DNA of 63,580 nucleotides, the filler included, from Candidatus Woesearchaeota archaeon (GTDB taxonomy: Archaea > Nanobdellota > Nanobdellia > Woesearchaeales > CAZJJJ01): the NCBI GenBank assembly GCA_046538795.1. It is 3 parts of 3 records of this genome, joined end to end, with 100 filler letters (N's around TTAATTAATTAA, not from the genome) between each part and the next. Parts side by side here need not be neighbours in the genome. Positions count along the whole stretch, not along the records: positions 22,112 to 43,339 come from JBKHIF010000019.1; 2 more parts are not named here. The stretch is one strand, 5' to 3'. Below are positions 24,001 to 27,000 of this stretch, piece after piece; positions within the stretch are counted from its first letter, which is position 1; every line of letters begins with the position of its first letter. Made by a program: the position numbers.

Positions 24001-27000
24001 AAACTTATAGAATACATAAACAGGCAGCTTGCAAATGGATTTACAATAGATAAGATAAGAGAAGCTATGTTTGAGTATTATCCAAAGAATCTTGTAGATG
24101 AACATGTGAATTATGTTATAGAACAGCATGTCGAGAATATCAAATCATCTGCAAAGATTCTTCTGTCACAGGGAAAAGATCTTTCTGAGATAAAGGACAT
24201 ATGTCTTGAAAGAGAACATGACAATACAATTGTTGATAAGCTTCTTTCTGAACTTAAGGATGAGAAAAAAGGATTTCAAAATAAGTCGCAAAATGATATT
24301 TCGTCAAAAAATGATACTAATAACAAAAAAGGACAAACACAATACGTACAAAAACAGCTTGAAATTTATATACAAGATCAGCTTAGAAAAGGCTACTCTT
24401 TGGAAAGCATACATTCTCTTCTCCTGAACCAGGGATATAATCCTGAAAATGTTAATTTTGAAATTAATAAGATACGACAGAGTCATTTATATGTTCACAA
24501 ATCTCATTTTCTTACTGGCATCATAGTCATGTTGCTTATAGCAGGACTTGGGTTTGGATCTTTTATGCTTTTTGGTGATTCTCAGAGATTGCTTGATGTA
24601 AAAGCAGAAGGATTTGACACAATGAGAACTCTTTCTCCAGGAGAGAGGATTGAATTTAAGGTTGAAGCACTGAACCTTGGAAAAAGAGAAAGATATGATG
24701 TTGATTTTACTTTTACTATGCGGGATATGGATGGAAATGTTCTTGAAAGAAAATCTGATACAAGAGCTATTGCAACATCGATATCTCTTATTCCTTTCAT
24801 GGATATACCATCAGATGCAGCTCCTGGAAATCATATGATGCTTGTTGAGGCAGATTACGGAGATGGTGTTGCAAGAAGCAGTTTCCAATTCAGGATAGAA
24901 AATAATTACGATTCAGAATATGAAGATTTTCCTGATGATAGGGACGATTCAGATCTTGAAGATAATAAGCAAGACACAGATGATTCTTATGAACATCCAG
25001 ATGATTCTGCAGATGATAATTCCAACATAAAAGATGATACTTACACAGATGATGAAACATCTGATGAGAATTCTGAAAATGAATACATACCTCCTGAAAA
25101 ACTGTTCATATTCATACCATCAGAAGATGGAGCGACTTCTAAAAGCAGCATAGAAAGTATTGCTCGGGATGATATTACAAGAGCTAAAGAACTTTGCAGT
25201 AATCTTCCTAATCCAGACAGGCAAAATTGTCTTACAAAAGTGCAGGAAGCTTTGGGTGAATTTGAAGAGGTCTGCGAAAATACATCAACCTATCTTGGAG
25301 AGACGTTCTGTCTTGATGAAACATCTGAAGATATTCCTGAAAATCCTTGCAAACTTATAGAAGGTCATGACGAAAGGATCGCTTGCGAAGAGTTCCTTAA
25401 AGAATCATGGGATAATGCTCCTATCAATAGCACAGGTGAAGGAATAATCAACCATGGTTCTGATGAGATTCGAGACATAAGCGACATAATAGATTGAATA
25501 TTTAGTAGTATTCTATTTCTTTCTTGAGATATATTCCTTGTTTTAGTTCAACAGGACGCCAAGTATCAATTATCAGTTCTGCATCAAGCCATCTTGCAAG
25601 CTCTTTAGGATTTCCTATTGTTGCTGAAAGAGATATGAGCTGCATGTTTTTTAAAATGTCTTTTAGCATTGTTATGAGTATTTCAAGCGTTGGTCCTCTT
25701 GAAGGATCATTAAGAAGATGCACTTCATCTATTATTATGGTCGAGACATATTTAAGCCAGGGGGTGTGGTGTCTTAACAAAGAATCAAGCTTTTCTGAAG
25801 TTGTAATTATGAAATCATAGTTTTCAAGATAAGAATCAGAGGAATCCGTATTTCCAATGGATAATGCTATCCTTAATTTATTTCCGTATTTTTGCTTGAA
25901 ATCATTATATTTTTCAGATGCAAGCGCTTTCAATGGAACAATATATATAACTTTTCCTATCTGATTGACTATGGAATTTACTGCTGCAAATTCAGCTATA
26001 AGTGTCTTTCCTGAAGCTGTAGGAGTGCATATGAGAAGATTTTTTCTGTCGAAAAGCCCTTGCTTGACTGCTTTTTCTTGGGCAGGGAATAGTTCTTTCA
26101 TACCTTTATTGTCTAATTGAGAATACATGAATTCCGGGATCTTAGTTTTTATTTCTGAGAGTTTCATCTTGACTTAATCTATTAGTTTATATGTTGTAAG
26201 TTCACCAGAACGAAAAACCTCTTTTATTTTATAGTTTTCTAAAATCAGATTTTCATTTTTGTATGCTGGTATATCTATAAAGTATTTGTAGGTGTAATTC
26301 TTATTTTCAAATATTTTTTGAAAATTTCCAGTCTCTAGATATATACAATCTATGTTGTACTTTTCAAGCAAAATGCATCTTGACTGCATTGCATAAGCTT
26401 CATTTATTATAAGAGTATTATTATCGTTTAATTTAGATATTGTCCTATCAAAATTGTGTGTTGAGCTATAATCCATATCTATTGGTCTCAAACTAAAAAA
26501 GGATACAATTATTAGGATGATCAGCAGAAATTGGCTTGATCTTTTAATGATACCATGTCTTAATCCCATTCCTGCCAGTAACATTATTGATGGTATAAGT
26601 ATTGCAAGAAATCTTTCCTGATAACTATGAAAAGTTAAGATAAGAATTCCGAATATGGTTATTTGAGATAAGGGATATTTTAGGAATTTTTTGAAATTTC
26701 TATTAAATAAAGAGCTTATAATACATAATGTTAATGCTATTCCTATAATATTGTTCAAGAATAACGATTTATATATTACATTGAATCTAAAAAAGAACTG
26801 ACTTGGTAAAAAAAATATTTCATCGGTTCCGGTATGGTGTTGAGTTTCTGTCAAGAGATGAAATAATATGATGATCATATACGAAAATGTGATAAAGATA
26901 ATAAAAAATGTAGATTCTTTATTATTCTTGATATAATTTTTTATTGTTTTTTTATTGTCAAACAAATAGTATATTAAGTATAGTATTGTCAACAGAAAAT

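Follow-up and report, generated by a model that had tools for sequence, protein, structure and literature searches.

Hel308 is encoded by two complete, unlinked genes in nearly all sampled members of the archaeal order Woesearchaeales, an old and probably functional gene fission

Hel308 is a Ski2-like SF2 helicase of DNA repair. To our knowledge, all Hel308 enzymes that have been solved or characterised are single chains. Gene fission itself is already known in DPANN archaea. Table 1 of Podar et al. 2013 (PMC3655853) gives the split genes of Nanoarchaeota, including reverse gyrase, Glu-tRNA(Gln) amidotransferase, a "Predicted RNA-binding protein" (NEQ438-506), a "Large helicase-related protein" (NEQ003-409) and others, and in that paper splits at a shared site are taken to mark common ancestry. 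A split of Dph1/2 was described in Woesearchaeota, Pacearchaeota, Parvarchaeota and Altiarchaeota by Narrowe et al. 2018, as cited in PMC6349945. Here we analysed a Candidatus Woesearchaeota archaeon, for which a preliminary description had reported Hel308 as two complete genes on different contigs; open reading frames, Pfam matches, structure alignment and tblastn searches all confirm this. A similar helicase split in Nanoarchaeum equitans had also been mentioned there, and we take the large helicase-related protein of that organism (NEQ003-409) to be Lhr. The split helicase named in Table 1 of PMC3655853 is that protein and not Hel308.

The window, meaning the whole stretch of 63,580 nucleotides that was analysed, consists of contigs C72, C76 and C79 joined by runs of N. 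The gene for the N-terminal half of Hel308 (N-half) occupies 25502..26167 on the minus strand (C76:3391-4056) and is internal to its 21,228-bp contig. Its open reading frame begins with ATG, ends with its own stop codon (25504-25502) and encodes 221 residues that comprise the RecA1 domain only (Pfam DEAD, E 6e-32), with the Q motif and motifs I, Ia, II and III. The product aligns to residues 7-210 of P. furiosus Hjm (2zj2, E 1e-61) and spans positions 1-217 of the 739-position NCBIfam Hel308 model (NF002654). In the translation, motif I (Walker A) is TPTASGKT at residues 48-55 (26003..26026, minus strand), motif II is DEVH at residues 147-150 (25718..25729, minus strand) and motif III is SAT at residues 181-183 (25619..25627, minus strand). 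T48, P49, T50, S52, G53, K54 and T55 of the first, D147, E148 and H150 of the second, and S181, A182 and T183 of the third are invariant across 37 N-halves. The C-terminal tail, residues 205-221 (PVELKQGIYLKKEIEYY; 25505..25555, minus strand), is predicted by a complex model to dock on the RecA2 domain of the other half. The upstream neighbour on the same strand (26174..27700, minus) is a predicted membrane protein of 508 residues that ends 6 bp ahead of the N-half start; it is not part of the helicase, and a Pfam search returned no match for it.

The gene for the C-terminal half (C-half) is C24:4583-6157 on the plus strand, internal to an 11,360-bp contig. Its 524 residues hold RecA2 with motifs IV, V and VI, the last including the arginine finger, followed by the winged helix, the ratchet (domain 4) and the C-terminal helix-loop-helix. 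Pfam finds Helicase_C and Helicase_dom4_arc (E 1e-27, above its own cut-off), as well as HTH_61 and HHH_5, both below theirs. The alignment to 2zj2 runs from residue 233 to residue 681 (E 5e-77), and the match to the NCBIfam model covers positions 227-713. Across 40 C-halves, T110-P111-T112-L113..G116 and motif VI, Q148..G151-R152-A153-G154-R155-P156, are invariant. Between them the two products therefore carry the RecA1 motifs I (GKT), II (DExH) and III (SAT), the RecA2 motifs and the accessory domains of Hel308, and on a tree the split pairs are placed among fused Hel308 sequences from DPANN archaea. Scored with the NCBIfam Hel308 models (NF002654 / NF040935), the N-half reaches 287.6 bits and the C-half 457.9, and even their sum, 745.5, stays below the cut-off of 887 for a single polypeptide. 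Such scores explain why public records carry names such as "DEAD/DEAH box helicase", "helicase-related protein" or "hypothetical protein". The two-chain Hel308 would be expected to be a DNA-dependent ATPase that unwinds DNA in the 3′-5′ direction.

Each half is single-copy by tblastn of the whole assembly, and the same search found no one-piece Hel308. The other match, considered as a second Hel308 copy, is a DSHCT-type Ski2/Mtr4-like helicase on C50 (652 aa; DEAD, Helicase_C and DSHCT) that is 30-36% identical to the halves. This paralogue is contiguous in the present genome, as it is in relatives (frames of 629-714 aa), so that the fission concerns the Hel308 orthologue specifically and does not reflect a general habit of helicase genes in this genome.

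The preliminary description had also claimed that the split is kept in nearly all members of the order sampled, and its counts hold on larger samples. Our main sample was 121 same-order genomes, each with a different family code; completeness across the sample is roughly 93%. Both halves were found in 105 of these, the N-half only in 5, the C-half only in 8 and neither in 3; without G112, an unpublished genome, both halves occur in 104 of 120. None of the 121 genomes has a one-piece Hel308 gene. A strong N-half match (E <= 6.5e-50) is present in 110 of the 121, in open frames of 197-350 aa without an internal stop, and a C-half match (E <= 1e-30) in 113. The short N-half is also present in 146 of the 154 same-order genomes of a second sample, where every same-order match listed is unfused. 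Linkage in relatives was likewise checked: in 10 genomes both halves lie on one contig, 29-423 kb apart, they are on different contigs elsewhere, and they are never adjacent. The two-gene structure is also found in the single-contig genomes G016, G025, G085 and G097. In public databases, 4190 clusters of 121-387 aa match the N-half (E <= 1e-20), the best 120 being 219-274 aa long, while the best 120 relatives of the C-half are 505-609 aa long and have no DEAD domain. Close homologues carry the organism names "Candidatus Woesearchaeota archaeon" or "Nanoarchaeota archaeon".

Some genomes appeared to depart from this structure. Three-piece versions of Hel308 in G037, G063, G073 and G092 were rejected, as the C-half matches stop at contig ends and represent assembly breaks. 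A clean third gene in G103 was rejected as well; there a frameshift between overlapping frames disrupts the C-half, and the search found no N-half. The genomes with one half include G096 (N-half only) and G106 (C-half only), both rated 100% complete, and a relaxed search for the missing half in these two gave paralogues only. The one-half genomes fit a sample completeness of about 93%, and some may represent real loss of one partner.

We propose that the common ancestor of the order underwent a fission of its single Hel308 gene, within the RecA1-RecA2 linker, that the two pieces then became separated in the genome, and that purifying selection keeps both. The translated chains would most likely pair non-covalently, restoring the usual Hel308 ring as a heterodimer, with the last ~17 residues of the N-half docking on RecA2 as a tether. 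We assign a probability of roughly 0.8 to this reading, in which an ancestral fission left unlinked halves that remain under selection and assemble as a heterodimeric Hel308. The ATP site would form between the two polypeptides, with the N-half contributing Walker A and DEVH and the C-half supplying the arginines of motif VI (QMAGRAGRP), as expected from the workings of SF2 helicases and from the structure model. The complex model gave an ipSAE of 0.82 in three runs, and the best of 3 controls gave 0.02; the ipSAE mark used is one that 116 of 157 solved complexes attain, as do 2 of 215 mismatched pairs. The runs share at least 96% of contacts, with a partner pLDDT of at least 88. In the model, the expected errors are lowest where N-half residues 205-216 and 218-221 contact residues 163-178 of the C-half, and the interface residues are those of the intact enzyme. 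As the prediction may be reproducing solved one-chain Hel308 structures from the training of the predictor, we take it as a measure of likeness and not of binding.

If the halves no longer cooperated, they could have taken on separate roles after the fission, with the C-half serving, for example, as an ATP-independent scaffold for DNA binding or strand annealing and the N-half as an ATPase module for another partner. The 13 of 121 genomes that show a single half, among them two with a completeness rating of 100%, are consistent with such a divergence, and so is the position of the genes, which are unlinked and have unrelated neighbours in this genome, leaving shared regulation without an evident basis. 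However, the invariance of the motif VI arginines in the C-half and of Walker A and DEVH in the N-half makes sense only if a shared ATP site is kept, two obligatory genes would be expected to occur together about as often as the halves do (105 of 121 genomes) at ~93% completeness, and the modelled interface residues match those of the intact enzyme. We consider separate roles unlikely for these reasons. We also speculate, with equally little confidence, that the two-chain form is put to use: the RecA1 subunit could be a dissociable, separately regulated ATPase module, so that the C-half would sit as an inert clamp on forked DNA until the N-half is supplied, or the N-half could serve a second partner as well. 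If this were true, a naturally switchable SF2 helicase would have been kept through the history of a large archaeal order, and the one-half state of G096 and G106 would be real.

Returning to the ancestral fission, the fused state in sister orders and the position of the cut bear on its origin. Among 47 genomes from other orders of the class, Hel308 was found in 6, all of them fused (frames of 687-744 aa, ORFs of 683-735 aa); the remaining 41 gave no N-half match at E <= 1e-35. Within the order, we fetched 20 genomes, where the N-half ORFs are 215-247 aa and the C-half ORFs 484-594 aa. The cut falls at the same residue position in all 20, and in every one of them both halves carry separate start and stop codons. 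Most have WRPV.L..G near the N-half end, with the stop 10-17 residues after WRPV; two have a longer tail. Identity to the query is correlated between N- and C-halves across the 20 genomes (Spearman 0.82), a value that shared ancestry alone could yield. On the tree, 20 of 21 split pairs cluster with an SH-aLRT support of 87. The exception is G114, the most divergent split pair, which falls with the fused sequences in the free quick tree and implies two state changes. Together with the limited support for the main split group, this placement would fit repeated, independent fissions within the order, or fused genes in the sister lineages that are secondary re-fusions. Several results speak against such a history. 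No end branch in the tree is longer than that of G114 (1.14), whose cut site is identical to that of the other fetched genomes. Constraining all 21 split pairs together gave a log-likelihood 14.8 units above that of the free quick search, with a p-AU of 0.697, and a single origin of the Hel308 split is thus not rejected. With all six Hel308-bearing genomes of other orders fused, and no same-order match listed as fused, we regard repeated fission or re-fusion as somewhat less plausible still than separate roles. The features of the conserved split genes of reduced DPANN genomes are all found here, namely two complete genes, a cut site shared across the clade and a single gene in outgroups.

The products could in principle be joined covalently, by protein trans-splicing through a split intein or by joining of mRNAs in the manner of the tRNA halves of Nanoarchaeum. 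Inteins do occur in this gene family, with a full intein in motif V of the G072 C-half and intein domains in some N-halves (P0246, P0260, P0267 and P0308), and tRNA trans-splicing is known in Nanoarchaeota (PMC3655853). In the present genome, however, Pfam finds no intein domain in either half, so that the two are not joined by protein splicing. In the N-half 6 residues follow the last Hjm-aligned residue, and in the C-half 16 precede the first; both run collinear with Hjm (7-210 and 233-681), there is no space left for fragments of a split intein, and a split intein at the junction was rejected on these grounds. The separate start and stop codons of each gene in all 20 relatives also argue against covalent joining, which we judge very improbable. 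Although the assembly is in 97 contigs and contig-end truncations produced the apparent C-half third pieces in the four genomes noted above, sequence data refute, as far as such data are able to, the reading of the split as misassembly, frameshift or pseudogene, since more than 100 genomes, single-contig ones included, share the two-gene structure and cut site, both genes are internal to contigs with invariant motifs, and a contig from a different study's run matches window positions 24000-25984 with one base difference and so reproduces the N-half 3′ end, its stop codon included. The order-wide open frames, invariant motifs and shared cut site bear out the earlier view of old, conserved splits, and we conclude that the split is a real, old and probably functional fission.

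The ribosome-quality-control factor aRqcH had likewise been described as split into two unlinked genes. Both genes exist. The N gene is C10:1559-2653 (plus strand; 364 aa; Pfam NFACT_N 3-364), and the C gene is C26:7797-8600 (plus strand; 267 aa), with Pfam matches to the end of NFACT_N (370-415) and to NFACT-R_1; the start given previously for the latter, 7806, is an in-frame ATG three codons inside. On the RqcH_arch model (NCBIfam NF041120; 645 positions) they span 1-376 and 380-644, and they score 258.6 and 328.5 bits, each below the cut-off of 400, which their sum of 587 would pass. The same logic as for Hel308 would apply, with two complete genes, a shared cut site, here in the coiled-coil middle region, and unsplit outgroups. 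The aRqcH split is kept in the order, but it is not specific to it: elsewhere in the class, other orders have it in at least four genomes (G150, G151, G152 and G218), and four others are fused (G125, G174, G177 and G255), making the split more widespread in the class than that of Hel308. In G152, a 0.5-Mb single-contig genome from another order, the halves are 62 kb apart. This fits our assumption that the Nanoarchaeota "Predicted RNA-binding protein" (NEQ438-506) belongs to the NFACT/RqcH family. The aRqcH split probably corresponds to that entry, listed as split in 2013 (PMC3655853, Table 1), and its novelty, which the preliminary description had put forward, is small; for the most part it broadens what that table had recorded for Nanoarchaeota. 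A literature search for NEQ438/NEQ506 found no paper, and the available portion of PMC4075521, on the NFACT family, contains no passage on a split.

For Hel308, we found no published account of the split in the literature on Hel308, DPANN, Woesearchaeota split genes or gene fission. It is absent from the portions available of PMC6349945, PMC8407392, PMC3655853, a 2026 Nanobdellota preprint, PMC8301817 and PMC11237513, and the supplements of the last, as far as accessible, contain neither "Hel308" nor "COG1204". The accessible text of PMC10946056, a study of the Ski2 family, has no passage on it either, as had been stated before; its methods set a minimum COG coverage of 60% and discarded 53 partial sequences, a filter that split forms would not have passed. 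Surveys requiring 60% model coverage would score the order as lacking Hel308. More than 100 families of the order with a two-chain motor would constitute a natural test of how important the covalent RecA1-RecA2 linker is in SF2 helicases, and the order supplies a ready-made two-piece Hel308 for biochemistry. The fixed cut site also provides a clean taxonomic marker of the order.

Compared with known systems, the two products have the same five-domain order and all the helicase motifs of archaeal Hel308/Hjm (P. furiosus 2ZJ2, A. fulgidus 2P6R, S. solfataricus 2VA8 and 9B15), whereas here they come from two unlinked genes cut in the RecA1-RecA2 linker and would act as a two-chain enzyme. The Ski2/Mtr4-like paralogue belongs to the same helicase superfamily but is one contiguous gene. 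The Dph1/2 split is a published fission common to the same broad archaeal group, in a different protein. There is also a likeness to the split genes of Nanoarchaeota, which, as with Hel308 here, are one gene elsewhere and two in small-genome DPANN archaea, with assembly needed after translation; unlike those genes, Hel308 is absent from Table 1 of Podar et al. 2013 (PMC3655853).

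Hel308 is encoded in this genome by two intact genes on different contigs. The assembly comprises 97 contigs, three of which (C72, C76 and C79), linked by runs of N, make up the 63,580-base window. The N-half is an ORF of 221 codons with an ATG start and a stop codon, located on the minus strand at window 25502-26167 (C76:3391-4056) and internal to its 21-kb contig, with 3.4 kb and 17 kb to the ends. A contig from a different study's sequencing run matches window 24000-25984, including the N-half stop codon, with 1 base difference. Judged from its sequence, the N-half product is one complete RecA1 helicase domain and nothing else: Pfam identifies DEAD (E 6e-32), and the translation carries motif I (TPTASGKT), motif II (DEVH) and motif III (SAT). 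Among solved structures it is closest to archaeal Hel308/Hjm helicases, aligning with residues 7-210 of P. furiosus Hjm (2zj2) at E 1e-61, and it covers positions 1-217 of the 739 in the NCBIfam Hel308 model (NF002654). The C-half, an ORF of 524 codons at C24:4583-6157 on the plus strand, lies inside an 11.4-kb contig among unrelated neighbours. Pfam assigns it Helicase_C and archaeal helicase domain 4 and, more weakly, winged-helix and helix-hairpin-helix domains, and it aligns with Hjm residues 233-681 (E 5e-77) and model positions 227-713. Together the two products thus run collinear with an ordinary Hel308, meeting without overlap, loss or extra sequence at the junction. A tblastn search of the whole assembly returned a single copy of each half and no one-piece Hel308, in agreement with the preliminary description of two complete genes. 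The other match, on contig C50, is not a second Hel308 but a Ski2/Mtr4-like paralogue with a DSHCT domain, encoded by a contiguous ORF of 652 aa (locus L065 1043-3001, minus strand), and its relatives across the order have frames of 629-714 aa.

The N-half gene is preceded by a membrane-protein gene, and just upstream of this are two adjacent radical-SAM genes of 304 aa and 587 aa (window 27766-30445, minus strand). The 304-aa gene is the one checked against Pfam; the 587-aa gene appears by eye to contain two radical-SAM-like halves. On the plus strand are large ORFs for a Cys- and Asp-rich protein of 584 aa (window 22219-23973) and an acidic protein of 501 aa (window 23992-25497), the latter with one membrane span by eye and no Pfam family. 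On C24, translations of positions 8158-8541 (locus L001) show an internal direct repeat of ~35 residues in ORFs on both strands, which is probably an intergenic DNA tandem repeat.

Each half served as a query against 121 genomes of the order: that of the window and 120 others, all of different family codes. The N-half had a strong match in 110 (E <= 6.5e-50), all in open frames of 197-350 aa without an internal stop, and the C-half in 113 (E <= 1e-30), in frames typically of 500-570 aa. In G006 and G019 the N-half query matched only a ~640-aa paralogue. Both halves were present in 105/121 genomes (104/120 without G112, which is marked unpublished), the N-half only in five (G010, G024, G062, G084, G096), the C-half only in eight (G019, G037, G048, G053, G058, G103, G106, G117) and neither in three (G006, G054, G111); none of the 121 had a one-piece gene. 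With assemblies ~93% complete on average, 105/121 is close to expectation for two obligatory genes. A relaxed re-search of ten one-half genomes recovered fragments in G037, G062 and G084, either in short frames or where a contig ends, and returned only paralogues in G096 and G106, although these two have completeness ratings of 100%. It is conceivable that a few lineages have genuinely lost one half. In G103 the C-half (L067, G103:C2 306-1818) consists of two overlapping frames of 155 aa and 358 aa with a 32-nt overlap, and the search for an N-half at E <= 1e-20 was negative; the broken gene is due either to an error in sequencing or to ongoing loss of Hel308 in this lineage. A second sample of 201 genomes from the phylum, 154 of the same order and 47 from other orders of the class, gave the N-half in 146/154 same-order genomes, in frames of 153-350 aa among the matches listed. 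The claim that nearly all genomes of the order keep the split thus holds in both samples.

Coordinates read across the order sample showed that the halves never adjoin. One contig holds both in 10 genomes, at distances of 29 kb (G021), 37 kb (G016), 54 kb (G119), 92 kb (G034), 93 kb (G098), 170 kb (G085), 275 kb (G022), 307 kb (G108), 332 kb (G025) and 423 kb (G097), and elsewhere they are on different contigs; the genes, described as unlinked in this genome, are unlinked in the relatives with both halves as well.

Fused Hel308 was found outside the order. The N-half matched 6/47 genomes of other orders (E <= 1e-35), all in frames of 687-744 aa, and each of the six, once fetched, was a single ORF of 683-735 aa. 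In a search of longer proteins, the nearest fused ones went up to 63% identity and 301 bits; the 120 top-ranking stand-alone N-halves all scored higher, at 324-397 bits. We took both halves from 20 genomes spread across the order, the most divergent ones included. N-half ORFs (215-247 aa) mostly stop 10-17 residues past the conserved WRPV.L..G, two having a longer tail, and C-half ORFs (484-594 aa) mostly start just ahead of the conserved L.(I/L)ALDTI...KQAL.F block, a few having longer N-terminal extensions. The longest C-half, 594 aa in G033 (L057), has an extension of ~85 residues whose start, judged by eye from 40 residues of sequence, reads like a small helix-turn-helix domain. In a quick maximum-likelihood tree of 55 rows (21 split pairs, 26 fused DPANN sequences and 8 outgroups), 20/21 split pairs formed one group (SH-aLRT 87), and the long-branched G114 pair grouped with two fused sequences. 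Holding all 21 pairs together improved the log-likelihood by 14.8 units over the free search, with p-AU 0.697, which makes one fission at the base of the order the simplest reading, neither rejected nor proved by these data.

The sequences are consistent with halves that still function. Across 37 N-halves there is no variation in the Q motif, motif I, motif Ia, DE.H or SAT, and across 40 C-halves none in motif V (TPTL..G) or motif VI (Q..GRAGRP). Public protein collections hold thousands of Hel308 halves: the N-half is matched (E <= 1e-20) by 4190 clusters of 121-387 aa, the best 120 being 219-274 aa, and the 120 top-ranking relatives of the C-half, at 505-609 aa, have no DEAD domain. Intein domains occur in some public stand-alone N-halves (P0246, P0260, P0267, P0308), and some C-halves (G079:C37, G093:C1, G087:C31 and G072) contain a large intein; in the last, a 1052-aa ORF (L066, G072:C5 305-3463) carries Intein_splicing and LAGLIDADG domains at motif V of RecA2. 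Divergence from the query is correlated between the halves (Spearman 0.82, 20 genomes), a value that common descent alone could give.

The ATP-binding cleft of SF2 helicases is formed jointly by the two RecA domains, RecA1 contributing Walker A and DExH and RecA2 the motif VI arginines, so a working Hel308 here would need both chains. Covalent joining by an intein is ruled out, as Pfam finds no intein domain in either half and the junction has no spare sequence; the chains would thus have to associate non-covalently, with the ATP cleft lying between them. We modelled the complex with each half supplied as an alignment, in three runs and with three controls. The ipSAE was 0.82 in 3/3 runs, a mark attained by 116/157 solved complexes and 2/215 mismatched pairs, and 0.02 in the best control. 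The runs shared at least 96% of contacts, with partner pLDDT of at least 88. The tightest contacts joined the N-half tail (residues 205-221) with C-half residues 163-178, and a second set joined N-half residues 162-166 with C-half residues 221-226, which suggests that the tail, docked on RecA2, acts as a tether. Because single-chain structures of Hel308 have been solved, the high score may reflect the predictor's familiarity with them; it indicates resemblance to the intact enzyme and not that these two chains bind.

The ribosome-quality-control factor aRqcH is also split, into intact, single-copy genes of 364 aa (C10:1559-2653; NFACT_N, RqcH_arch model NF041120 positions 1-376) and 267 aa (C26:7797-8600; end of NFACT_N plus NFACT-R, positions 380-644 of 645). 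Among same-order genomes of the phylum sample, the C part was found in 149/154 (frames ~250-480 aa, shorter partial matches aside) and the N part in 142/154 (~300-460 aa), with no frame of fused-protein length among the matches listed; in nine genomes with both on one contig, 180-585 kb separates them. Set against a fused reference, all five split genomes compared have their cuts at roughly matching places in the coiled-coil region. The order-wide split proposed earlier therefore stands, without being restricted to the order: G150, G151, G152 and G218, from outside it, also have split genes, while G125, G174, G177 and G255, from other orders, have fused ones of 596-737 aa. The aRqcH split thus extends beyond the order, whereas the Hel308 split does not. 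In G150 and G218 the rqcH halves lie on one strand with the cysteinyl-tRNA synthetase gene exactly between them (L019, G218:C7 817-5156; L020, G150:C27 610-3742, where rqcH-N at 610-1638, cysS at 1635-2999 and rqcH-C at 2984-3742 overlap at their ends). This layout may be the route by which rqcH was split, or an intermediate state. In G218, cysS itself (L019 1960-4245) comes in two pieces: an ORF of 240 aa covers profile positions 2-176 and one of 251 aa covers 188-300. Between them lies an ORF of 270 aa that weakly matches Phage_endo_I, and it looks as though an endonuclease gene has split cysS.

The 'Predicted RNA-binding protein' in the literature on nanoarchaeal split genes is probably of the COG1293/NFACT family. 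Table 1 of Podar et al. 2013 (PMC3655853) lists that protein among the split ones, with one cut site shared by N. equitans and Nst1. A helicase split in N. equitans, mentioned in the preliminary description, does exist; the Nanoarchaeota helicase named in that paper is Lhr, not Hel308. Open-access full text yielded no description of a split Hel308, and subscription papers or incomplete supplements could mention one. The 2024 survey of archaeal Ski2-like helicases (PMC10946056) set a model-coverage threshold of 60% and left partial sequences out, a filter that would hide a split Hel308. Together, we consider the split real and its earlier interpretation essentially right, with association and activity of the halves being predictions. 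Among split genes, a DPANN review (PMC6349945) names reverse gyrase, tRNA synthetases and Dph1/2. The Hel308 split resembles such gene fissions known from small-genome DPANN archaea and is a further, well-supported example, notable in that the cut passes through the helicase motor core and is fixed across a large order.
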